A DNA stretch of 43,821 nt, taken from Escherichia phage VerenaMeyer_Bas76. Where the stretch lies: sequence record PQ850632.1; one strand, given 5' to 3'. A model generated the notes under the pieces. It had not been told where the DNA came from. It was given only the letters and a program-made list of their open reading frames with translations, and did not search any database. This document shows positions 3,315 through 38,084 of this stretch, one piece after another. The first letter of the stretch is position 1. The number at the start of each line of letters is the position of its first letter. Both the position numbers and the translations under genes were made by a program.

Positions 3315-3336
3315 AGCCCCGAAAGGGGCTTTCTTA
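3315..3336 (+). terminator. stem-loop AGCCCC-GAAA-GGGGCT followed by TTCTT (attenuator-like)
   Basis: Perfect 6-bp GC stem with GAAA tetraloop and a short T-run between the portal and head morphogenesis genes. Confidence 0.4.
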
Positions 3337-3340
3337 TAGT

Positions 3341-4417
3341 ATGCTATTAACTTTAGCGCCACAGGGTTTATCTATGAGCTTACTTACATCCCTAATCAGC
3401 CATCAGATATGGCTGCAACGCACCGCATCCGGTGAGGTGAAAGACCTCACGCCGTTCATTCAGGAGATAAGGGATGAAATCAAACGGCAGGTGCTGTTAT
3501 TCGGTGACGACGGTCGCAGCACTGCGCGACTGAATAAACTGTTACGCGACCTGGAAGAAGCACTAACCGGTATTACGGGTGACTGGCAAACAAAGCTAAC
3601 AGACGACCTTAAGGAACTGGCGGCGTACGAGGCTGAGTGGAACGTAAAGACACTGACCGCCAACGTAGACGCGGAATTTGTTACGCCTACCGCTGAGCAG
3701 GTATGGGCCGCTGCCGAGTTTCAACCATTATCATTGAGCGACAAGCCCGTTGATTTCACCAAGCTGATGTCTGGATGGGGCGAAACGGAAGTAGCACGTC
3801 TTGTAACTGGAGTTAAGATGGGCTTTGTGCAAGGTCAAACCACACGGCAGATTGTTAAGAATGTTGTTGGCGCTGGTGGACTAGCCGACATCTCAGAACG
3901 TAACGCGACTACGGTAATCCGCACCGCGCTGTCCCACGTATCCAACGAGGCCCGTAACGAGACGTACCGCCAGAACGACGACATCATCGAGAAGTACGAG
4001 TGGGTGTCAACGCTTGACAGCCGCACCAGTACGATTTGCAGGGTCAGAGACGGGATGACGTGGGAAATTGGTAAGGGGCCGATGCCCCCAGCCCATCCGA
4101 ACTGCCGGTCGTGCACGGCTCCGGTAATCAGTTCCGAGTTCGACTTCCTCGATAAAGGCGCAAAACGCGCGGCTAAAGGCGCGGAAGGTGGCACTCAGGT
4201 AAGCGCAGACACCACTTACTACGAGTTCCTTAAACAACAACCGGCGTGGTTTCAGGACCAGGCGCTCGGCCCGGTGCGAGGTAAGATTTTCCGTAACAGC
4301 GGTATATCGCCGGAAGAGTTTCGCGTAATATCTGTAGATGGTTTCGGGAATCCGCTCACGCTTAAGCAGATGGCGGAACTCGATAAACGTGTTGCTGATT
4401 ATCTGAAAGGGGAATAA
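3341..4417 (+). CDS. head morphogenesis protein (SPP1 gp7 / Mu F-like)
   Basis: 358 aa, directly after portal. Composition and position match the minor head protein family usually found after portal. ATG 3374 is an alternative start. Confidence 0.6.
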   Translation: MLLTLAPQGLSMSLLTSLISHQIWLQRTASGEVKDLTPFIQEIRDEIKRQVLLFGDDGRSTARLNKLLRDLEEALTGITGDWQTKLTDDLKELAAYEAEWNVKTLTANVDAEFVTPTAEQVWAAAEFQPLSLSDKPVDFTKLMSGWGETEVARLVTGVKMGFVQGQTTRQIVKNVVGAGGLADISERNATTVIRTALSHVSNEARNETYRQNDDIIEKYEWVSTLDSRTSTICRVRDGMTWEIGKGPMPPAHPNCRSCTAPVISSEFDFLDKGAKRAAKGAEGGTQVSADTTYYEFLKQQPAWFQDQALGPVRGKIFRNSGISPEEFRVISVDGFGNPLTLKQMAELDKRVADYLKGE

Positions 4418-4878
4418 TGATGGGCTTTTTCAAAGTAACTGACGTACCGTCTCGTCGCGTAGTCCAGTACGCCCGCGTGTCTGGCTCTGGCGAGAACGTG
4501 GTATTTATTGAGGACGAAAGTGTACTCGGTACACCGGTAGATGATATGCCGTTTGCAGATAAAACCGGTATTGCGTTGCCCGCCGCCGGTATGCTTTATG
4601 AAATTCCGTATCTGGCGGACGCTGGCGACGTGTATTTCTCTGTGCAACCAAAAGACGCTGAACTGGCCGACGGCAGCGCGACTATCACTGTCGAAGTTAA
4701 AGCAGGTGAAGCGCCGTATGCACTGACCTGGTACAAAGACGGTAAGGAAGTTGTCAACGCCCCGGAAGAGGCACTTTCCTTGACGGTTAACGCAGTGGGT
4801 GAATACTTCGTTAAAGTTACCGATGCTGATGGTGTAGAGGCTGTCAGTAAAGCTGCGAAGGTCACTAAGCCCGAATGA
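4417..4878 (+). CDS. Ig-like domain protein (possible capsid decoration protein)
   Basis: 153 aa, start overlaps the previous stop (TAATGATG). The C-terminal segment YALTWYKDGKEV...GEYFVKVTDADG is an Ig-like/BIG fold signature, paralogous to the C-terminus of ORF 7880..8221. Confidence 0.55.
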   Translation: MMGFFKVTDVPSRRVVQYARVSGSGENVVFIEDESVLGTPVDDMPFADKTGIALPAAGMLYEIPYLADAGDVYFSVQPKDAELADGSATITVEVKAGEAPYALTWYKDGKEVVNAPEEALSLTVNAVGEYFVKVTDADGVEAVSKAAKVTKPE

Positions 4879-4880
4879 TA

Positions 4881-4908
4881 AAAGGCCCCATTAAGGGGCC
4901 TTAGTTTT
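4881..4908. terminator. bidirectional intrinsic terminator (AAGGCCCC-ATTA-AGGGGCCTT)
   Basis: GC-rich hairpin with T-run on the plus side (AGTTTT) and A-run/T-run on the minus side. Sits between convergent genes 4417..4878(+) and 4908..5111(-). Member of a three-copy terminator family (see 12138 and 24196). Confidence 0.65.
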
Positions 4909-5111
4909 CAACGGAATCTTGTGTTTAAATCCTGCTCGTGGACGACCCTCAGAACAGTGTCATAATCCCCGTATCTTCCAGGTTCAAATATATCTAATGC
5001 CTTGTAAGCAGACATTGCGTCAGGGAAAACCTGCAGAACCTTTTTAACCCGGCACAAGTCACCGTCGAACTCTTCATCGAACTCTTGAACTACTTCGCAA
5101 ATTGCATACAT
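4908..5111 (-). CDS. hypothetical small acidic protein (67 aa), opposite-strand island gene
   Basis: ATG at 5111..5109 preceded by GGAGGTG on the minus strand. Driven by a TTGCAC-N17-TACTAT promoter copy and ends at the bidirectional terminator. No recognisable domain. Confidence 0.5.
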   Translation of the reverse strand: MYAICEVVQEFDEEFDGDLCRVKKVLQVFPDAMSAYKALDIFEPGRYGDYDTVLRVVHEQDLNTRFR

Positions 5112-5138
5112 TTTTCACCTCCTGTTTAAGTTAACTGA

Positions 5139-5167
5139 ATAGTACCCTATTATATTGGGGTGTGCAA
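5139..5167 (-). promoter_or_regulatory. sigma70-type promoter TTGCAC-N17-TACTAT (early promoter family copy 1)
   Basis: Minus-strand reading TTGCACACCCCAATATAATAGGGTACTATTCA. Near-identical copies at 13943..13971(-), 36609..36637(+) and 38025..38053(+). Confidence 0.55.
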
Positions 5168-5233
5168 ACTATTTATTTACGTATTCCAGTTATTCCACCG
5201 AATTGTAAATGTTGGAATAAACTATTCGAATAG

Positions 5234-5262: not shown

Positions 5263-5440
5263 CCACCTGAGCTTGTGAAGTATGAACAAGCGACCGCGGC
5301 GCGGGCAGGTAACGGAGCGGGACGTAAGTCCTGAGTGTAGTTACGCTGACGCGTTCGGAAGGGCCATACTCTATTGCTTGTGTAAAAAGTAACAGGTTTA
5401 CTGAGATTACGCCGTTTCTATGTTTAAATGATAAGGACTA

Positions 5441-5468
5441 GCGCCCCGCTTTATGGCGGGGCTTTACT
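5441..5468 (+). terminator. intrinsic terminator/attenuator upstream of the spanin genes
   Basis: Stem GCCCCGC/GCGGGGC (5443-5449 with 5456-5462) followed by TTTACTT, 19 nt upstream of the Rz-like start. Confidence 0.5.
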
Positions 5469-10554: not shown

Positions 10555-10967
10555 TGGGCTACTTTGAGGACTTAACAAAAGCGTTCGATGTTCCGCTGGT
10601 AGCCTTCGGAACCGCCAACGGCATCAAGGTTGCGCTTGAAAACATCGACGCGCCGACGTCAACCGATACGCCGTATCTGGCGAGTTACATGCTACTGGCA
10701 GATACCGAGCAGGCGGATTTGTTCTTCACTGAGCAACGCTCTGGTATTTATCAGGTAGACATTAACTACGCATCGGTGAAAGGTAGCGCGCCAATCAATA
10801 AAATGGCAGACTTACTTAACACGGCGTTTAAAGCAGGTAAGTCATTTTCGCGTAACGACATCTGCGCCGAGGTTCAATCGGTTAGCCTGGGGCCGCTGAT
10901 TGTAGAAAACGGATGGGCCAAACGACCATTGTCAATTAACTTTATTGCATTCACCAAGAGGCTGTGA
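10554..10967 (+). CDS. tail terminator / tail completion protein (putative)
   Basis: 137 aa, ATGA-coupled to the gp10-like gene and precedes the major tail gene. Confidence 0.4.
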   Translation: MGYFEDLTKAFDVPLVAFGTANGIKVALENIDAPTSTDTPYLASYMLLADTEQADLFFTEQRSGIYQVDINYASVKGSAPINKMADLLNTAFKAGKSFSRNDICAEVQSVSLGPLIVENGWAKRPLSINFIAFTKRL

Positions 10968-12136
10968 ATATGGCTACAACTCCTTTTAAGGGCGCGAATA
11001 CCGCGCAATTCTATGTGGCGGAAACTACCCCTGGCGTAACACCGACTAACCCGGTATGGTCGCCGTTGCGTAACACGGGCGGCGTTCCCGCTGTAACCCG
11101 CGATGCACTGACTTCCAACGAACTGGACGGCAGCCGTGAAACTACATCCATCCGAACCGGTAACAAGCAGGTTAGCGGGGAGTATGCCATCGAACTTAGC
11201 TCTCGTAGCCAGGATGATTTCCTTGCGGGAGCGATGACTTCTACGTGGCAAGCTGGGGTAGAGATTACTGGCGCCGAAATTACGGTCGCCCCAGCAGGTA
11301 AAACATTCACCCGCGCTGCCGGTAGCTTCATTACTGACGGTGTAGAAGTTGGCGACCTTATTGCGTTCACCGACTTAACCGGCGACAACGCAAAACCGTT
11401 TATCGTGACCGCGGTTTCCGCTCTGGTAGTTACGGGCGCAGGTATTCAGCACACGCTGACAGCAGAGACAGTAACCACTGACGCAAAAACTGGCGACAAG
11501 CTGGAAACCGGTAACGCGTGTAAGACGTTCTCCATCCTGACGTGGTTCAAGGGCCAGTGTGGTAACCCGGACGCGTACATGCTGACCAAAGGTGTGGAAA
11601 TCTCTGGCTTTACCGTAGAGCAGGCGGTTAACGCCATGGTCACCGGCAGCTTCCCGTTCATCGGCCTGAGTCAGGAGATTCTTACCGCGCCGCCGTCTGG
11701 CTCTGATTTCTCTCAGGTTACGTTCACCGATGAGCCGTTCTCGTCGGTAGATGTGTCGGTGTTCGATGGCTCCACGCCGTTGCGTTGCGATACTCTCACC
11801 ATCACCAACGACAACGGAGCTTCCGCGCAGTTCGAACTCGGTAACAGTAGCGTGGCGTTCGTCGAACGTGGACGCGCAGCTAACACATTCTCTATCTCTG
11901 GCAAGCTGTACGACATGGCGATGATTCAGAAGTTTATCAACGAGCAGCAGGTAGAGATTAACTCTATTCTGGCAGGGGTAAACGGGGCTATGTCTTTCAG
12001 TTTGAAACGTGCAGAGCTTACGGCGGTTACACCTGAGATTGGTGGGCCTGAGTCAATCACTCAGTCCATTGAAGGCCAGGCTACCGGCAATCAGTACCAG
12101 TCGTCTATCGTAATTCAACGTATCACCTACGCATAA
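10964..12136 (+). CDS. major tail (tube) protein (putative)
   Basis: 390 aa, last gene before the tail chaperone and tape measure set. Ser/Thr/Gly-rich. Confidence 0.5.
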   Translation: MNMATTPFKGANTAQFYVAETTPGVTPTNPVWSPLRNTGGVPAVTRDALTSNELDGSRETTSIRTGNKQVSGEYAIELSSRSQDDFLAGAMTSTWQAGVEITGAEITVAPAGKTFTRAAGSFITDGVEVGDLIAFTDLTGDNAKPFIVTAVSALVVTGAGIQHTLTAETVTTDAKTGDKLETGNACKTFSILTWFKGQCGNPDAYMLTKGVEISGFTVEQAVNAMVTGSFPFIGLSQEILTAPPSGSDFSQVTFTDEPFSSVDVSVFDGSTPLRCDTLTITNDNGASAQFELGNSSVAFVERGRAANTFSISGKLYDMAMIQKFINEQQVEINSILAGVNGAMSFSLKRAELTAVTPEIGGPESITQSIEGQATGNQYQSSIVIQRITYA

Positions 12137-12137
12137 A

Positions 12138-12166
12138 ACTAAGGCCCCTTTCGGGGCCTTTTTCTC
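12138..12166. terminator. bidirectional intrinsic terminator (AAGGCCCC-TTTC-GGGGCCTT)
   Basis: Hairpin with TTTTTC on the plus side, sitting between convergent genes 10964..12136(+) and 12165..12395(-). Same family as 4881 and 24196. Confidence 0.65.
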
Positions 12167-12395
12167 ACTCATCAATATTACTTCGATACTCCCGTAACTT
12201 CTCCAGACTTTCAATTGCTTCTGCTAAGTCGGTTCCGGTGTCCTTATGCCCGCGAAGACCCATGCACAATAACTTCTTCAATGCGTGCTGTAGTGCGGGG
12301 TCACGGATGTCGAAGGCACGGAGAACATCGTAAACGTCTACGGTCATAGTGCTGCCGTGAGTGTTTGTCATTGTTCGGTTGTATTTTGAAGTCAT
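12165..12395 (-). CDS. hypothetical protein (76 aa), last gene of the opposite-strand cassette
   Basis: Start overlaps the upstream stop (ATGA coupling with 12392..13522). No recognisable domain. Confidence 0.45.
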   Translation of the reverse strand: MTSKYNRTMTNTHGSTMTVDVYDVLRAFDIRDPALQHALKKLLCMGLRGHKDTGTDLAEAIESLEKLREYRSNIDE

Positions 12396-13522
12396 CCCAG
12401 CATCTCCGGTGAAATAGTTAAACGTGCGACCTCGCCATATTCGGCGCTATAAGTAATTACATTTGCACTACGGCCTGACATCCACCCGCCGCGGGAGGCA
12501 TAGGCGTCTTTAGCCGCTAAGGTGCGGTGTTGCTCAACAATCATGTTACGGCTTTCTACAATCTTCTGGTGGTGCAGGTGGCCTACGTGGGCGTAGCTAT
12601 AGACACTCTCACCGAACGCTTTGCGGAATTTGGCAATCATAACCGGTTCGATAGCATCGAATCGCGCCTTATGCCCGTGGTGAAAGAACAACGTCGTTTT
12701 TCCGTGTTGCACCATCTTGTAAACATCCGGCGACGTATCGACAATCACTCGGCTGTCGTTCGAATATAAAACTGTGAACATTTCAGCCAGCCATACAGAG
12801 CCTACAGGGTCATGGTTCCCCTGTACGATAAGCAAGCGAACATTTTTATGTTTAACCAGTGCCATATCTACAACACGGCGTACCATACGAATCATGTAGC
12901 GGACGAGTTTCTGGTAGCGAGTGTCTGCGTCCAACACGTGACGCGACTCGGGTGTAACGGCATCCAGACTATCGAAGTGCGCGAAATCACCCAGCAGGTT
13001 AATAACTCCTGTTCCTGCATCCGGTGCTTTCTGAAACGCCGCGTCGAACCAACGAGAGAACAGGTCTTCCGCAATCTTTATATCCCAGTCGTCGCCGCTC
13101 TCGTCGGCCCAGGCAAGCATACCGAGATGGAAATCAGATACCGTGTAAAGATTGAGTAGCTTGTCGTCGCGTTTGGCTCGAGTCGCTTTAGCCGGCGCAA
13201 CTGGCGTAATCTCTGACTTCATGCCTTCAATCACGGCTTTCATCAACTCGACCTGACGTTCAGCGTCGGTGTCTGTCTTAACCCATTGCAACTTAGTATT
13301 GCCGAACTCGTCTACCAGAGACGACGTCCCTTTAATCTTGTAGCCGTCTGGGACAAGGTGGCTAACGTCACGCCCGTGGCCTACACCTTTCTTAGCCAGC
13401 TTCGCTTTACGGATACGAATAACTCGGTCTGAGATGCCGTATTTACGGGCGATGTCTACATTCTTCATCCCGGCGTTCAATTCTTCCTGTAACTGTTCGT
13501 CGGTTATTTTCTTCTGGGCCAT
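12392..13522 (-). CDS. HTH-domain protein fused to calcineurin-like metallophosphoesterase
   Basis: 376 aa. N-terminal HTH (VDIARKYGISDRVIRIRKAKL). Ordered metallophosphatase motifs: SDFHLG, GDFAHFD, GNHD, HHGH, GHLHH. Confidence 0.7.
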   Translation of the reverse strand: MAQKKITDEQLQEELNAGMKNVDIARKYGISDRVIRIRKAKLAKKGVGHGRDVSHLVPDGYKIKGTSSLVDEFGNTKLQWVKTDTDAERQVELMKAVIEGMKSEITPVAPAKATRAKRDDKLLNLYTVSDFHLGMLAWADESGDDWDIKIAEDLFSRWFDAAFQKAPDAGTGVINLLGDFAHFDSLDAVTPESRHVLDADTRYQKLVRYMIRMVRRVVDMALVKHKNVRLLIVQGNHDPVGSVWLAEMFTVLYSNDSRVIVDTSPDVYKMVQHGKTTLFFHHGHKARFDAIEPVMIAKFRKAFGESVYSYAHVGHLHHQKIVESRNMIVEQHRTLAAKDAYASRGGWMSGRSANVITYSAEYGEVARLTISPEMLG

Positions 13523-13587
13523 GCTTACTTCCTCGTGTTTAGGATTTGTCCTATTTAACCACAGTGGATTCCTTTAAATAAAGGCAA

Positions 13588-13914
13588 CTATTTACTTTCT
13601 GCGCCTATCGCCCACCCTGTCATTACCATTTGCAGACGGGTGGCTGTCAGTAGGCTATAGAAAGCATCTCCGTTTTTCTCTACCGAACGTATCACTGTGT
13701 AGGTTACGGCCTGCGGGGGTAGGCCCGATTTACCGACATCTACGGCGGCCTCGCATTCACGGACTGTGGAGTCCTTAAATGCCTTTACAATAGTAGGGTC
13801 GGCTTTATCAAGCACACCAGAAGTCATAAGAACAGATTCACTAAATACCTGTTCGCACGGGGCTCCAAAAGTAGCAAAAGACATAAAACCCAGAGCTAGT
13901 ACTAATTTACGCAT
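13588..13914 (-). CDS. secreted/periplasmic small protein with signal peptide (108 aa)
   Basis: N-terminus MRKLVLALGFMSFATFGA is a classic signal peptide. ATG preceded by GAGGAA. First gene downstream of promoter copy 2. Confidence 0.55.
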   Translation of the reverse strand: MRKLVLALGFMSFATFGAPCEQVFSESVLMTSGVLDKADPTIVKAFKDSTVRECEAAVDVGKSGLPPQAVTYTVIRSVEKNGDAFYSLLTATRLQMVMTGWAIGAESK

Positions 13915-13942
13915 AATTATTTCCTCAGTAAGTTACATGTGA

Positions 13943-13971
13943 ATAGTACCCTATTATATTGGGGTGTGCAA
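13943..13971 (-). promoter_or_regulatory. sigma70-type promoter TTGCAC-N17-TACTAT (early promoter family copy 2)
   Basis: Minus-strand reading TTGCACACCCCAATATAATAGGGTACTATTCA, identical over about 30 nt to the copy at 5139..5167. Confidence 0.55.
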
Positions 13972-18565: not shown

Positions 18566-19081
18566 ATGAGCCAGGAATCTGTAGAAGCCGCCTATCGCCG
18601 TAAGCTGGCCTCAAATCCCGACGGCGAGATGGACTACATCACGTTGCAAATCAGCCACCCGTTGTTGTCAAAGACGTACTATCTTGTTCGTGGGCTACAG
18701 GAACTCACGGTAACACTGGAGACAGGCGAAATTATCACGTTCGAGCCAACCCCGATGGAGGCGTCGGGGGCGGCTAACAACAGTGATATGGACCAGACGA
18801 CTACGTTTACTTTACCGGATATTCTCAATCAACTTGACGATGAGATGGATAAAATCCCTATGAGTAACACCGAGTTGCCGAAGTTCGTATTCCGACGTTA
18901 CGTCAGCACCGACCTGTCTTACCCGGCGGATGGCCCTGTCGTGTACGAGTTACAGGCCATCAACCAGGAGAAGGGCGAGTTCTCTGCGGATGTCGGTACA
19001 CCTATGCTGAACCAACGAAGCACTGGTATACTGATGACACCTAAAGAGATACCGTTATTACGCGGCCTGTTGACCACATGA
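18566..19081 (+). CDS. minor tail protein (gpL-like by position)
   Basis: 171 aa, sits between the M-like and K-like genes. Assigned by gene order only. Confidence 0.4.
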   Translation: MSQESVEAAYRRKLASNPDGEMDYITLQISHPLLSKTYYLVRGLQELTVTLETGEIITFEPTPMEASGAANNSDMDQTTTFTLPDILNQLDDEMDKIPMSNTELPKFVFRRYVSTDLSYPADGPVVYELQAINQEKGEFSADVGTPMLNQRSTGILMTPKEIPLLRGLLTT

Positions 19082-22013: not shown

Positions 22014-24194
22014 ATGTCAAGCGGATGCGGTGACGTTTTAAGCCTGGTGGATTTACAAACCGCCAAGAAACACCAGATTTTCGAGGCCGAGGTTATCACC
22101 GGTAAAGCTGGCGGTGTAGCTACGGGTGCTGATATTGATTACGCAACTAATCAGGTTACGGGACAGACACAGAAGACGTTGCCAGCCGTGTTGCGTGACG
22201 CCGGGTTCAGACCTGCGCCATTCACATTCGAAACAGGTGGGACTTTGGGCGTTAACGACGCTGACCTGGCGGTGTTGTGGCCAGGGCCATCAGGCGACGG
22301 CAACTATTATGCATGGAAAGGTGCCCTGCCAAAAACCATCCCGGCATCTTCAACCCCGGCGTCTACGGGCGGAGTAGGCCAGACCGCATGGGTTGCCGTT
22401 AGTGAAGCTGCATTGCGCCGTGATTTGGCCCTAAGCACTGGCGCAGGGTTAGTTGGGACAACATCCGGCAGGACCGTACAGGCAGAGTTTGACTACCGCA
22501 AGACTCAAGCAGCAAAAACAGAGATAAACATACTTGACTACCTTCCAGCTAACGTGATCGCAGCTCTAAACGATGTTAACGCGTCAAAAGCACTAGGAAG
22601 CGTAAGGACATACATTGAGCAGGCTTTAGCGGCAGCAACTAGCGAGAATATCGGTACTGGGGTTACTTTACGTTTCCCGGCTGGGTTCTTTTGGCTTGAT
22701 TCTACTCTTAACCTTCCAAAAAGGACGCGTATTGTTGGGGTCTACCCAGAAACATACTTTATGGCTCTCCCTGACTTTACTGGCACTAACGTAATTGCCG
22801 GTTCCACAGGACCCGCTATAGTCGCTATTGATAACACAGGACAAGACCCGTTTTATATTGAAGGTTTCCAGATAAACGCAGATGGTTCCCAGCCGAATGT
22901 GGTTGGGCTGCACATTGGCGGCTGCCGTAATTCCGTCGTCCGTCGGATATCTGTATCTGGAACCTTCGATGCTGCTGTTGTTATCCACCCTAAAAACGCA
23001 ACATCTGGAGACGTGGAGAACCTGGAATTAAGCCACGTATGGACATTAGGCGGTGGGCTTGTGCTCAGGACTAATACAGATATCGACCGTGGAAATTTAA
23101 CAGGCCTGTCATTCCGGGATTGTATGTTTTTCAGCACAATCGACAACAACCCTTCATGGGCGACATCTGGCAACCCTAGTATCAGGTTCTCCTGCCATGT
23201 AGACCGACAGATTTTTGCATGTACATTCGACCGTGTAGGATGGGCGAGTCGCGCAACATACGCCATCTATTCAGAAAGCCTAGCCGGAAATAGTGCATCT
23301 GATGTCAAGGGCTTCCGCGATATTCATTTTACAGATTTCCACGGAGAAGCCCACAATGCCGATGGGTCATTAACAGCGGACTGTACTTTTGCCCTTCTTG
23401 CGAATATGCGTAACAGTACATTTACTAATATCCAACGCTCCGGCGCTGTGACTCGCGGCGGCATTATCATGGATGGGTGCGAATACGTAACATTCAACTC
23501 AGTATCATTTGCGGACCCTAATATCACAACAGGAACAACGACACCTTGTTGCGTATACCAGAACTCCACCAACAGATTTAATAGATTTATTAACTGTGAC
23601 TTAACAGATGCAACCGGGAGCATGTTTGATTTAGCCGGTTGGACCGTGTCATCCAGTGTAATGTATTATTTTAAGGGTCTTTTTTGGGACGATAGTGGGA
23701 CAAGTACCTGGGAGAGTGAACAAATGTCTTCAAAACCATTTGTTCTTTTTAAAAGGTCTGCGCTTAACGCCAATAACGGTTCTGCTTACCCGCAGGAATC
23801 AGGCGTAACTATGGCTACTTCTGGTGATAATCTACAGGTTACCTTTGCACGAGACGCTACCACAAAAACATTCACAATACCAATCACAACTACAAACGCT
23901 GTTTTCAACAACCACGACCGTGTTTATGTCCTATTCCGTCATCAGTTCACTAGCTATGGCACTGGCACAGTTGTAAAAATAGGGCTTGGAACATCCTATG
24001 TGACTATCTCACCTCAGACAGGGAACGATTATTTTGCGGCTATTAGCTTAGCACGTAGCCAGGCTACTAGTTTTAATATACAAGTAACCTATAGCGGGGC
24101 CTCAGCTGACTGCGGAATATTAATTAGGGATTTAATTATTTCTGACAGGATGCCGTGGGTGCCGAACTTCACCAAAGCATTACTTTGCGATTAA
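22014..24194 (+). CDS. tailspike / receptor-binding protein with beta-helix (putative polysaccharide depolymerase)
   Basis: 726 aa, last structural gene. N-terminal roughly 140-aa anchor-like domain, then long Asn/Gly/Thr/Ser-rich repeats typical of right-handed beta-helix tailspikes. Confidence 0.6.
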   Translation: MSSGCGDVLSLVDLQTAKKHQIFEAEVITGKAGGVATGADIDYATNQVTGQTQKTLPAVLRDAGFRPAPFTFETGGTLGVNDADLAVLWPGPSGDGNYYAWKGALPKTIPASSTPASTGGVGQTAWVAVSEAALRRDLALSTGAGLVGTTSGRTVQAEFDYRKTQAAKTEINILDYLPANVIAALNDVNASKALGSVRTYIEQALAAATSENIGTGVTLRFPAGFFWLDSTLNLPKRTRIVGVYPETYFMALPDFTGTNVIAGSTGPAIVAIDNTGQDPFYIEGFQINADGSQPNVVGLHIGGCRNSVVRRISVSGTFDAAVVIHPKNATSGDVENLELSHVWTLGGGLVLRTNTDIDRGNLTGLSFRDCMFFSTIDNNPSWATSGNPSIRFSCHVDRQIFACTFDRVGWASRATYAIYSESLAGNSASDVKGFRDIHFTDFHGEAHNADGSLTADCTFALLANMRNSTFTNIQRSGAVTRGGIIMDGCEYVTFNSVSFADPNITTGTTTPCCVYQNSTNRFNRFINCDLTDATGSMFDLAGWTVSSSVMYYFKGLFWDDSGTSTWESEQMSSKPFVLFKRSALNANNGSAYPQESGVTMATSGDNLQVTFARDATTKTFTIPITTTNAVFNNHDRVYVLFRHQFTSYGTGTVVKIGLGTSYVTISPQTGNDYFAAISLARSQATSFNIQVTYSGASADCGILIRDLIISDRMPWVPNFTKALLCD

Positions 24195-24195
24195 A

Positions 24196-24224
24196 ACTAA
24201 GGCCCCAAACGGGGCCTTTTCTCT
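24196..24224. terminator. bidirectional intrinsic terminator (AAGGCCCC-AAAC-GGGGCCTT)
   Basis: Hairpin with TTTTCTC at the junction of the convergent late (plus) and replication (minus) operons. Third copy of the terminator family. Confidence 0.65.
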
Positions 24225-24360
24225 ACTCTTCTGATAACTTCTCCAGTACAAACGCCAGTTGTGCATTAGCGGCATCCCTCTGTTGCCGTAGTCGTAGAAC
24301 CTCTTCTTCGAGTTCCTTGATACGTTTTTGCAATGCTGGAATCGGGGCTATGATGTTCAT
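24223..24360 (-). CDS. hypothetical 45-aa coiled-coil peptide (below ORF-track cutoff)
   Basis: ATG 24360..24358 overlaps the upstream stop (ATGA). Translation MNIIAPIPALQKRIKELEEEVLRLRQQRDAANAQLAFVLEKLSEE. Ends at the terminator. Confidence 0.3.
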   Translation of the reverse strand: MNIIAPIPALQKRIKELEEEVLRLRQQRDAANAQLAFVLEKLSEE

Positions 24361-26941: not shown

Positions 26942-27257
26942 TTCTAAATTCCTTATATTGTTGGGGTATGTGCTTACTATAATAGTCTGCTATTAGGGTG
27001 TCAATCTGTTTTATCGAACCAACGACAAAAACATTTGCGCCACGTTTACGTATACGCTCGTGTTCCCGTAGCTGGTGCGGGTCTGGCTTAGTGTTTTCGT
27101 CTTTCTTCACCTCGACGAACCAGACGATGCCGCCGGGTAGAATTGCCAGCAGGTCAGGAGCGCCTGAACGTCCTTCGTAGGAAAGTTTACGAACGAGGCC
27201 ACCAATGGCCTCGAATCGCTCTTTTGCGTATTTCTGGATGCGGCCCTCTTTAGTCAT
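26925..27257 (-). CDS. VRR-NUC domain nuclease
   Basis: 110 aa. PD-(D/E)XK-type motifs GAPDLLAI...VWFVEVKK...QLREHE, characteristic of VRR-NUC. Confidence 0.7.
   Translation of the reverse strand: MTKEGRIQKYAKERFEAIGGLVRKLSYEGRSGAPDLLAILPGGIVWFVEVKKDENTKPDPHQLREHERIRKRGANVFVVGSIKQIDTLIADYYSKHIPQQYKEFRNETRI
26975..27003 (-). promoter_or_regulatory. sigma70-type promoter TTGACA-N17-TATAGT (internal, inside the 3' end of the VRR-NUC gene)
   Basis: Minus-strand reading TTGACACCCTAATAGCAGACTATTATAGT. Same family as 30678 and 32978. Confidence 0.45.
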
Positions 27258-29945: not shown

Positions 29946-29973
29946 TTAGTAAAAAGGCCCAATGAAGGGCCTT
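29946..29973 (-). terminator. intrinsic terminator/attenuator between the SSB-like and polymerase genes
   Basis: Minus-strand hairpin AAGGCCC-TTCATT-GGGCCTT followed by TTTTTA. Confidence 0.45.
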
Positions 29974-29992
29974 AGTTAAATTGATTCAGATA

Positions 29993-30619
29993 TTAGCGGC
30001 GGCGACGTTCGCGGCGCGGTGCTTCATCTTCTTCGTCGTCTTCCAGGTCATTGACGCTCGCAGCGACTTTAGAACCGCCGAACGCTTTGCCTTCGCCAAC
30101 GTATTTAATCGCCAGCAGGTTAACGCCGAGGACTTTGTATTTCTGGCTGAACCAGATTTCAACGCTTACGTTAGCTAAGCATCCGCTGTAAACCTGTTCA
30201 CCTTCAATCTGTTCACCGTCTACATTGAAGTCCTGTTCTACCTGAGTCTCACCTTTTTTAGAGGTTACAATCAGCGGCTGCTTCTGTGCCTTCGCTTTGA
30301 AGTAGAAGCCTTCCGGGAAGTCTTCAAACGGATTGTCACGCTCGGCAATGTCTTTAATCGCACATTTATCCATGTGCTTACCTTCGCCGTAGTTGGACTT
30401 CATCCACTTCTCGGCGGCGGCTGCACCTAACGCTTCTTCAACTACAGCGTAAACGGTGTCGTAGAGCGCGTCGATTTGCGCGTGGTCGGACGGCAGGATA
30501 ATAGTCGCGCTGTACTGACCTTTAGTGATTGAACCATCATCATTTTCACGGTCTTTTTCGCGTTCGAATACGTTAACCCAGGCAGTGTTTACTTTACGCA
30601 GATTTAATTTCAGTCCCAT
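29993..30619 (-). CDS. single-stranded DNA-binding protein-like (putative)
   Basis: 208 aa. Sits alone under a strong promoter between the nuclease and polymerase genes. Acidic tail DLEDDEEDEA followed by an Arg-rich end. Assignment is tentative. Confidence 0.4.
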   Translation of the reverse strand: MGLKLNLRKVNTAWVNVFEREKDRENDDGSITKGQYSATIILPSDHAQIDALYDTVYAVVEEALGAAAAEKWMKSNYGEGKHMDKCAIKDIAERDNPFEDFPEGFYFKAKAQKQPLIVTSKKGETQVEQDFNVDGEQIEGEQVYSGCLANVSVEIWFSQKYKVLGVNLLAIKYVGEGKAFGGSKVAASVNDLEDDEEDEAPRRERRRR

Positions 30620-30677: not shown

Positions 30678-30706
30678 ACTATAATAGCTAACTATTCATG
30701 TGTCAA
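30678..30706 (-). promoter_or_regulatory. sigma70-type promoter TTGACA-N17-TATAGT
   Basis: Minus-strand reading TTGACACATGAATAGTTAGCTATTATAGT, nearly identical to the promoter at 32978..33006. Confidence 0.55.
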
Positions 30707-32977: not shown

Positions 32978-33006
32978 ACTATAATAGCGAACTATTCACA
33001 TGTCAA
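32978..33006 (-). promoter_or_regulatory. sigma70-type promoter TTGACA-N17-TATAGT
   Basis: Minus-strand reading TTGACATGTGAATAGTTCGCTATTATAGT. Divergent from the plus-strand promoter of the XRE gene. Confidence 0.6.
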
Positions 33007-36608: not shown

Positions 36609-36637
36609 TTGCACACCCCAATATAATAGGATACTAT
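36609..36637 (+). promoter_or_regulatory. sigma70-type promoter TTGCAC-N17-TACTAT (early promoter family copy 3)
   Basis: TTGCACACCCCAATATAATAGGATACTATTCA followed by the leader CGAAACGAGACAGAGGAG. Confidence 0.55.
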
Positions 36638-36662
36638 TCACTTATCGAAACGAGACAGAGGA

Positions 36663-38024: not shown

Positions 38025-38053
38025 TTGCACACTAAGATAGAATAGGCTACTAT
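38025..38053 (+). promoter_or_regulatory. sigma70-type promoter TTGCAC-N17-TACTAT (early promoter family copy 4)
   Basis: TTGCACACTAAGATAGAATAGGCTACTATTCA followed by the leader ACACAAACGAGAGGAGAGACGGAAG. Confidence 0.55.
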
Positions 38054-38084
38054 TCATTTACACAAACGAGAGGAGAGACGGAAG

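Follow-up and report, generated by a model that had tools for sequence, protein, structure and literature searches.

The genome of Escherichia phage VerenaMeyer_Bas76 (PQ850632.1), analysed here as a single window of 43,821 nucleotides (nt), carries between its tailspike gene and its replication module (positions 24,196 to 24,224) a short GC-rich hairpin that recurs, nearly unchanged, elsewhere in the same DNA. The question raised by this locus is why a hairpin should be repeated in its sequence, and not in its structure alone, beside genes that are otherwise unrelated. The original prediction, made from the letters of the window, was of three copies of one bidirectional terminator at convergent transcription junctions, either duplicated together with inserted islands or acting as a shared recognition element for a protein or RNA. 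The best-supported interpretation of the element, on the evidence of sequence comparison, is a Rho-independent terminator that is canonical in one orientation and weaker in reverse. In addition, it quite probably serves as the conserved 3' end of exchangeable cassettes, with a shared promoter and leader as their other end; this second role was proposed because a sequence of 28 nt is near-identical at two to six places per genome, in Kagunavirus and in Jerseyvirus.

The window covers nearly all of a Kagunavirus (Guernseyvirinae) genome. Over a segment of 8 kb that includes the hairpin, it was 97% identical to Escherichia phage AnnaReinhart_Bas75 (PQ850596), with matching gene order, and the same segment matched hundreds of Kagunavirus and Jerseyvirus genomes. 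The layout was read from the Bas75 annotation and from the list of open reading frames (ORFs) in the window; packaging, head and tail genes lie on the plus strand, where they are broken up by two minus-strand islands, A and B (Table 1).

All three hairpins were found where they had been predicted. They follow the formula TAA/TGA-AACTAAGGCCCC-loop (4-5 nt)-GGGGCCTTTT, hereafter the module, and each takes up the complete spacer of 28-29 nt that separates two convergent stop codons. Copy A abuts the stop codon of a Hoc-like gene (4417..4878, plus strand) and forms the 3' end of the minus-strand cassette opposite (4908..5111); copy B sits between a tail protein gene (10964..12136, plus strand) and an ORF of 76 amino acids (aa) at the end of island B (12165..12395, minus strand); copy C sits between the stop of the tailspike gene (22014..24194, plus strand) and that of a 45-aa ORF (24223..24360, minus strand). 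The proposed pattern with a loop of four nucleotides applied as written to copies B and C on the plus strand, whereas copy A is inverted with a loop of five, reading TGA-AAACTAAGGCCCC-TTAAT-GGGGCCTTTT on the minus strand (as a module, AACTAAGGCCCC-TTAAT-GGGGCCTTTT). Similarly, the claim that every copy lies exactly where transcription units converge was accurate for these three but did not extend to a fourth, degenerate copy, which lies between co-directional minus-strand genes, namely an SSB-like gene (29993..30619) and a small ORF preceding the DNA polymerase gene. Therefore, the element is not confined to convergent junctions, and the fourth copy is likely to be an intra-operon attenuator. 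The stem starts 4-5 nt past a stop codon in all four window copies.

The repetition was far beyond expectation. When up to two mismatches were allowed, AAGGCCCC-N4-GGGGCCTT matched three times in the window, against 0.00 expected from 100 shuffles; AACTAAGGCCC matched exactly four times, a number that none of 100 shuffles reached even with one mismatch. A chance origin of the repeated hairpin was ruled out by these counts. Alignment of the four copies with their flanks, which had been suggested as a check for a common insertion footprint, showed likeness that was limited to approximately 28 nt; the flanks were unrelated, and hence there was no such footprint.

Several features of the module are those of a terminator. 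The predicted folds had stems of 8 bp with six G-C pairs (-14.9 to -15.8 kcal/mol), and folding z-scores in 51-nt windows were between -3.3 and -6.3. In the module orientation, the stem is followed by an uninterrupted run of U (CCUUUUUCUC, CCUUUUCUCU, CCUUUUAUCA), with 5-6 U in the 8 nt past the GC core. The same hairpin is marked as a terminator on both strands in the records of phages Schulenburg (MK931438) and fBC-Eco01 (OM272052), as is an analogous hairpin between ssb and a tail fibre gene in Rogunavirus AHP42 (KF771237); these labels come from the annotators' prediction programs. Sixty-one loci were also fetched via the tail protein, independently of the motif, and at 57 of them a stable hairpin began within 14 nt of the stop codon. 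The stem core at these loci was GGCCCC/GGGGCC in 40 cases, AGGGGC/GCCCCT in five and AGGGCC/GGCCCT in four, and GCCCCT/AGGGGC was observed also; that is, the core differs between clades and yet stays complementary, which indicates that structure is under selection, as it would be for a terminator. (RNAalifold, applied to a MAFFT alignment of site-B hairpins from different clades, returned no structure since the different stems were mis-registered, and was replaced by folding of individual sequences.) Therefore, the predicted identity as a terminator was borne out as the best-supported reading by the GC hairpin and U-tract directly past stop codons, by the different, complementary stems of distant relatives and by the labels in GenBank records. 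That identity is ordinary and already reflected in the annotations of related genomes. Genome papers on Kagunavirus and Jerseyvirus list predicted terminators and do not remark on the repeat, the BASEL paper does not discuss it, and a literature search with the stem sequences returned irrelevant papers only.

The module is widespread among related phages. The exact pattern AACTAAGGCCCC-N3-6-GGGGCCTTTT occurred in 116 IMG/VR stretches, mostly on contigs of 40-45 kb. A search of genomes from 185,579 bacterial and archaeal species gave only 12 stretches with it, and no enterobacterium was named in the titles of their records. Judged by this distribution, the motif is a lineage signature and not host sequence; a host-derived repeat was rejected, given its presence in phage contigs and the titles of the 12 bacterial-search records. 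A BLAST search of GenBank phages with a 30-mer matched 239 records at 99% identity or more; among the records listed, each had one to six places, and most of those from Salmonella Jerseyvirus had four to six. When the perfect hairpins of five genomes were compared (the window, Bas75, Golestan, Jersey and demigod), the AAGGCCCC/GGGGCCTT stem was unchanged at every such site while the loops varied, and the other terminators of these genomes had other stems. A stop codon abutted AACTAA in 110 of 124 non-redundant instances, and in 106 of these it was TAA, giving TAA-AAC-TAA. The site-B module of Jerseyvirus is inverted relative to that of Kagunavirus. The exact 22-base motif was present in a few unrelated bacterial assemblies, Taishania pollutisoli (L118 and L121, twice in one genome) and Micromonospora chalcea (L127, on a contig of 1.1 kb); these occurrences may reflect GC hairpins that arose by chance, a prophage or contamination.

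In relatives, the hairpin closes units that differ both in content and in position. Within the window, the unit at site A, after the Hoc-like gene (4879-5178), comprises putative promoter hexamers, an ORF and the hairpin, and homology with the cassettes of other genomes begins at 5178. The same leader of approximately 70 nt and the same hairpin were found to flank at least five fully resolved cargos in the window and its relatives (67, 173, 94, 57 and 242 aa), and also two multi-gene cargos that start with ORFs of 92 and 52 aa. The cargos of 173, 94 and 57 aa occurred at site A in some genomes and in others at site D, which is the spacer between the portal and head-morphogenesis genes; homology between cassettes at the two sites was 88-91% and ran from the leader to the end of the hairpin. 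The 173-aa gene, annotated as 'DNA polymerase III sliding clamp', occupies site D in fBC-Eco01 but site A in Schulenburg; here the two genomes share a segment of 622 bp with 95.7% identity, bounded by leader and hairpin. No cassette is present at site D in the window, Bas75 or Golestan, and the resident hairpin there (Table 1) differs from the hairpin of site-D cassettes; in relatives (fBC-Eco01 and several IMG/VR contigs) the site contains a leader-ORF-AAGGCCCC cassette. Sequence of the site-D type was present in the 5' part of two site-A leaders (L021 and L271), and these mixed leaders point to crossing over within the leader. Sites A and D were the only slots seen, with leader and hairpin at opposite ends of the ORF. 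The cargo proteins had no significant Pfam match; their PHROG matches were to families of unknown function, to a methyltransferase and, for the 173-aa cargo, to families with conflicting labels. The 242-aa cargo, a DNA methyltransferase at site A of two contigs (L109 and L057; IMG/VR 3300045988_014834 and 3300023038_000091), reads through the 5' arm of the hairpin and has its stop codon within the loop (gcccctTAAggggcc).

The other end of the cassettes is also shared. Islands A and B begin with an identical block of 32 nt and end at the same hairpin, and a third copy of the block (36609..36640) shows that they use a promoter type common to the small-ORF module. The block contains a putative promoter, with TTGCAC (5162-5167) as the -35 hexamer, a 17-nt spacer and TACTAT (5139-5144) as the -10 hexamer; the site-D cassette of Jersey has TTGACA-N17-TACCAT at the equivalent place, which supports this reading of the hexamers. 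The block also contains a palindrome, AATAG-N4-CTATT, of which the window has seven copies, against an expectation of 0.07, and phage Jersey four. Three of the window copies overlap the spacer and -10 hexamer of strong minus-strand TTGACA-N17-TATAGT promoters in the replication module. The palindrome matches the 'phage promoter' consensus reported with PHIRE for fBC-Eco01 (PMC9825357), and is likely to be the operator of a phage regulator; candidates for that regulator are the HTH proteins encoded near 33.1 and 36.0-36.3 kb. Read from these sequences, islands A and B belong to a regulon of the phage itself that is under operator control, and they lie antisense within the structural operon; such a position would make a strong terminator necessary at their ends. 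The idea that a terminator module had been duplicated with the islands was not upheld in the sense of a shared insertion footprint, given the unrelated flanks of the copies, but the promoter and terminator common to both islands vindicate it in part, as does the movement of the leader-ORF-hairpin unit between two sites in relatives. Upstream of the cassette leader there is a further perfect palindrome, AACTATTCGAATAGTT (5217-5232, minus strand), in which the operator half-sites stand in inverted order; it is kept in the site-A contexts of relatives.

When the flanks of the IMG/VR motif instances were mapped onto the window, the hairpin coincided with mosaic boundaries. At site C, after the tailspike gene, the replication-side flank was 91-95% conserved, and the tailspike side was usually without similarity. 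A sample of site C that was fetched via the helicase, and so did not depend on the motif, had a constant side of the form ...agaagagtagagaaaa-GGCCCC-loop-GGGGCC, with divergence right after TT or TTAGTTTTA. At site B, after the tail protein gene, the upstream side was conserved and the genes downstream differed in about half of cases. One contig (L151) had a hybrid hairpin, AACTAAGGCCCC-GAAA-GGGGCCTTAGTT, with both convergent genes ending in TAA-AACTAA, while Salmonella phage demigod had an extra DNA-binding gene with a copy of the hairpin on either side.

A transfer of the tailspike gene extended to another genus. Skatevirus Bas81 (L275, PQ850630) encodes an O16-type tailspike with 84% aa identity over residues 53-726 of the window protein (window 22014-24240 compared with Bas81 347-2548), and its gene ends in TAAAACTAAGGCCCC-GAAA-GGGGCCTTTT, followed by 17 nt more that are shared with Kagunavirus. 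In Kagunavirus the 45-aa minus-strand ORF ends with these 17 nt, but in Bas81 they are non-coding, which argues for transfer from a Kagunavirus-like donor. On this comparison, receptor-binding domain and terminator moved between genera as one block, and the donor was probably Kagunavirus-like.

The loops gave evidence of events at the level of DNA. They were counted in non-redundant contexts oriented like the window (loci L002-L258; the window loops are at 12149-12152 and 24207-24210). At site B, TTTC was found 25 times and its reverse complement, GAAA, 22 times; at site C, AAAC was found 16 times and GTTT five times. The rarer loops were also paired (TTCC/GGAA, ATAAT/ATTAT and GTTAA/TTAAC). 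Since the flanks keep their orientation, the loop alone inverts. These flips suggest hairpin-mediated micro-inversion, and would fit template switching or recombination across the palindromic stem. Unlike the variable loops of the other copies, that of the fourth copy (AATGAA on the plus strand) was identical, with the rest of the element, in phage Jersey (L132, 32204-32223), that is, between Kagunavirus and Jerseyvirus.

If the module is both a terminator and the 3' end of exchangeable cassettes, then its 8-bp hairpin followed by UUUU(U) in the RNA would end transcription arriving from the module side; from the other side, the hairpin precedes UUAGUUUU and probably terminates less efficiently. 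Placed on the stop codon of the preceding gene and filling the spacer up to the convergent gene, the hairpins would shield structural genes on the plus strand from three units on the minus strand, namely the replication module, island A with its single gene, and island B with its exonuclease. Islands A and B would be driven by the same operator-bearing promoter block. Promoter-leader, ORF and hairpin would form moron-like cassettes that take different cargos into either of two slots, and the receptor-binding domains of tailspikes would be swapped with the hairpin attached; we infer that exchange proceeds by homologous recombination between copies of the hairpin or of the leader. A bolder version is offered tentatively, as possible rather than probable: a PeSL-like exchange system of the Guernseyvirinae, in which promoter/leader and stop-hairpin are portable homology arms, genes hop between the two slots, receptor-binding domains cross genera, and the hairpin is itself active as DNA, its loop flips reflecting template switching or cruciform processing.

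Several results weigh against this combined role. The reverse strand reads GGGGCCUUAGUUUU(A/C), with the U-tract broken by AG, and its score was lower in every copy (the d'Aubenton-Carafa terminator score, here an approximate calculation that used modern energy parameters, served solely to contrast forward with reverse). Given the uninterrupted U run forward and the lower score in reverse, the module orientation was taken as canonical and the reverse as weaker; termination in both directions, as originally predicted, is plausible and agrees with the marking of both strands in relatives' records, but it would be asymmetric. A generic promoter/terminator scan was not enriched (24 found, against 21.8 and 20.9 expected in shuffles), so that support comes from the repeat and its context rather than from the scan. 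No 3'-end or reporter data were found in the literature for any Guernseyvirinae phage, and the one transcriptome paper found (K1B4) contains no terminator or 3'-end information. A sister clade (80% identity in the tail protein) has one hairpin at site B and another at site C, and so homogenisation across sites is not general. The Bas81 junction lies 17 nt past the hairpin and not at it. Finally, coincidence of junction and hairpin is no proof of hairpin-mediated recombination, since selection for intact genes also leaves junctions at gene ends.

Some of these results would be expected if the element were a terminator and nothing else, its likeness being due to descent and to selection for a strong hairpin, and its position at mosaic boundaries being passive, with no role in recombination. 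Such an account agrees with the conservation of structure while the stem drifts in more distant clades, with the different hairpins of the sister clade, with the position of the Bas81 junction, and with the records of relatives, which simply label terminators. However, a non-pairing flank, AACTAA, and the abutting stop codon have been kept at unrelated sites, after unrelated genes; identical cassettes occupy two slots, with homology ending exactly at hairpin and leader; and both the hybrid hairpin of L151 and the leaders that mix site-A-type with site-D-type sequence speak against passive descent. A role in termination alone was therefore judged rather unlikely, and the terminator that doubles as a cassette end was preferred.

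Two further accounts fared much worse. An element that is recognised by a protein or RNA, of the phage or of its host (a boxB-like antiterminator, a processing or stability signal, or a regulator site), with termination as a secondary matter, would explain conservation that is unusually high for a terminator and includes the single-stranded 5' flank AACUAA, as well as the several copies per genome. Yet neither the sequence nor the length of the loops is constant, and reverse-complemented loops occur at the same site; some genomes replace AACTAA with other A-rich flanks while the stem is unchanged, more distant relatives have other stems, the whole window contained no Rfam family at gathering thresholds, and neither an N- nor a Q-like antiterminator is annotated in Bas75, Golestan or Jersey. 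This part of the original prediction was abandoned as very improbable, and an antitermination hairpin of the boxB/nut type was rejected in particular, for want of a conserved loop in sequence, length or orientation and of an Rfam match. It is equally hard to credit that the hairpin spreads alone, as an autonomous mobile element similar to repetitive extragenic palindromes (REP) or miniature inverted-repeat transposable elements (MITE), or as a cruciform site for a VRR-NUC resolvase or homing endonuclease. It is a perfect palindrome with multiple copies in both orientations, its loop flip-flop implies events in DNA, and the phage encodes a VRR-NUC resolvase and recombination proteins; but the copies lack target-site duplications and common flanks, they are always found at gene 3' ends abutting stop codons and never within genes or at 5' ends, no bacterial-search record was titled enterobacterium, and their position equals that of differently sequenced terminators in relatives. 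A REP- or MITE-like repeat was rejected on account of the missing target-site duplication and the restriction to gene 3' ends.

Table 1. Positions of module copies, shared promoter blocks, palindromes and gene blocks in the window
Feature	Position	Strand	Description
Copy A of module	4879..4907	-	inverted; stem 4882-4902, loop TTAAT (5 nt, minus strand)
Copy B of module	12137..12164	+	stem 12141-12160, loop TTTC; AACTAAGGCCCC-TTTC-GGGGCCTTTTT
Copy C of module	24195..24222	+	stem 24199-24218, loop AAAC; AACTAAGGCCCC-AAAC-GGGGCCTTTTC
Fourth, degenerate copy	29951..29977	-	AACTAAGGCCC-TTCATT-GGGCCTTTTT; 7-bp stem 29954-29973
Empty site-D hairpin	3315..3330	+	unrelated; AGCCCC-GAAA-GGGGCT
Cassette leader	5109..5178	-	approximately 70 nt, AAATAAATAGTTTGCACACCCCAATATAATAGGGTACTATTCAGTTAACTTAAACAGGAGGTGAAAAATG; Shine-Dalgarno sequence AACAGGAGG, ATG at 5109-5111
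Cargo ORF of site-A cassette	4908..5111	-	67 aa; no Pfam family, weak match to PHROG of unknown function
32-nt promoter block, island A	5136-5167	-	TTGCACACCCCAATATAATAGGGTACTATTCA; inside cassette leader
32-nt promoter block, island B	13940..13971	-	identical; head of island B (13914..12165)
32-nt promoter block, small-ORF module	36609..36640	+	1 mismatch; heads the module
Palindrome AATAG-N4-CTATT	5138-5151, 13942-13955, 26981-26994, 30683-30696, 32983-32996, 36625-36638, 38041-38054		
Island A	4908..5111	-	single 67-aa ORF
Island B	12165..13914	-	three ORFs, one an exonuclease
Replication module	from 24223 onward	-	
Small-ORF block and lysis genes	from near 36.6 kb	+	

Other hairpins and annotations were observed nearby or in relatives. 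A terminator-like hairpin on the plus strand only (5443-5462; GCCCCGC-TTTATG-GCGGGGC, then TTTACTTATC) precedes the i-spanin gene (5487) by 25 nt; it follows a small ORF that is annotated in Bas75 at 5282..5392, and is conserved in Golestan. In the record of phage demigod (L130, NC_073218), a tRNA-Ser call on the minus strand (11898-11975) overlaps the site-A hairpin as well as the last part of the Hoc-like gene, and looks spurious, while the site-B hairpin (18977-19004) is annotated as an unexplained 'repeat_region'. ARAGORN identified no tRNA or tmRNA in the window, and a tRNA-like element was rejected.

The value of these observations lies in the comparative picture, in which one short regulatory pair marks the points where accessory genes, and also receptor-binding domains, are exchanged across a large and well-sampled group of small siphophages of E. 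coli and Salmonella. For annotators, the pair would be a simple signature by which to recognise slots for accessory genes, which may include candidates for anti-defence or exclusion; for phage engineering, it would supply homology arms and 'landing pads' of natural origin, in genomes that have already been put forward as chassis for synthetic biology. The flip-flop of loops would provide a clean natural record of hairpin-mediated micro-inversion. The picture would also extend the PeSL idea, that regulatory cassettes act as recombination linkers, from T4-type myoviruses to an unrelated subfamily of siphoviruses.

The module shares with intrinsic bidirectional terminators a GC-rich hairpin, A-rich on its 5' side and T-rich on its 3' side, placed in the spacer between convergent stop codons. 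It differs from them in that the 5' side is AAAACT and not a plain A-tract, so that the reverse U-tract is interrupted, and in that the sequence, rather than structure alone, is near-identical at several non-homologous sites in two genera. The PeSL cassettes of T4-type phages consist of short conserved promoter and stem-loop sequences around variable, mostly ORFan genes, and related genomes differ by insertion, deletion or replacement of ORFs between the conserved regulatory ends; stem-loop and promoter form one composite unit that is repeated many times in hyperplastic regions, and mini-circles as well as promoter and terminator activity have been demonstrated (Arbiol et al. 2010, PMC2839356; Comeau et al. 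2014, PMC4122927). Here too, a conserved promoter/leader and hairpin surround variable ORFs, and exchange at the motifs would explain the differences between genomes. The arrangement is different, however: promoter-leader and hairpin are separate ends of a single-gene cassette, with two slots, in a siphovirus of 44 kb, and large core genes too have the hairpin at their 3' end.

Hairpin-associated minute inversions are said to occur in the non-coding regions of chloroplast genomes, and quasipalindrome template switching is known in E. coli. The likeness lies in the presence, among close relatives, of both orientations of the loops between perfect inverted repeats; the literature searched contained no description of minute inversions in phage terminators. 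Morons, known from lambdoid and other siphophages, have unrelated regulatory ends in their classical form. Like them, each cassette is a single gene that is enclosed by promoter and terminator and inserted into the late structural operon between two of its genes, and it is variably present among close relatives, as at site D, which is empty in the window and filled in fBC-Eco01. The cassettes differ in that various cargos have the same leader and terminator, and in that the same cargo is found in two slots. The element belongs, therefore, to the moron/PeSL kind of phage regulatory cassette and is not a new kind of element.

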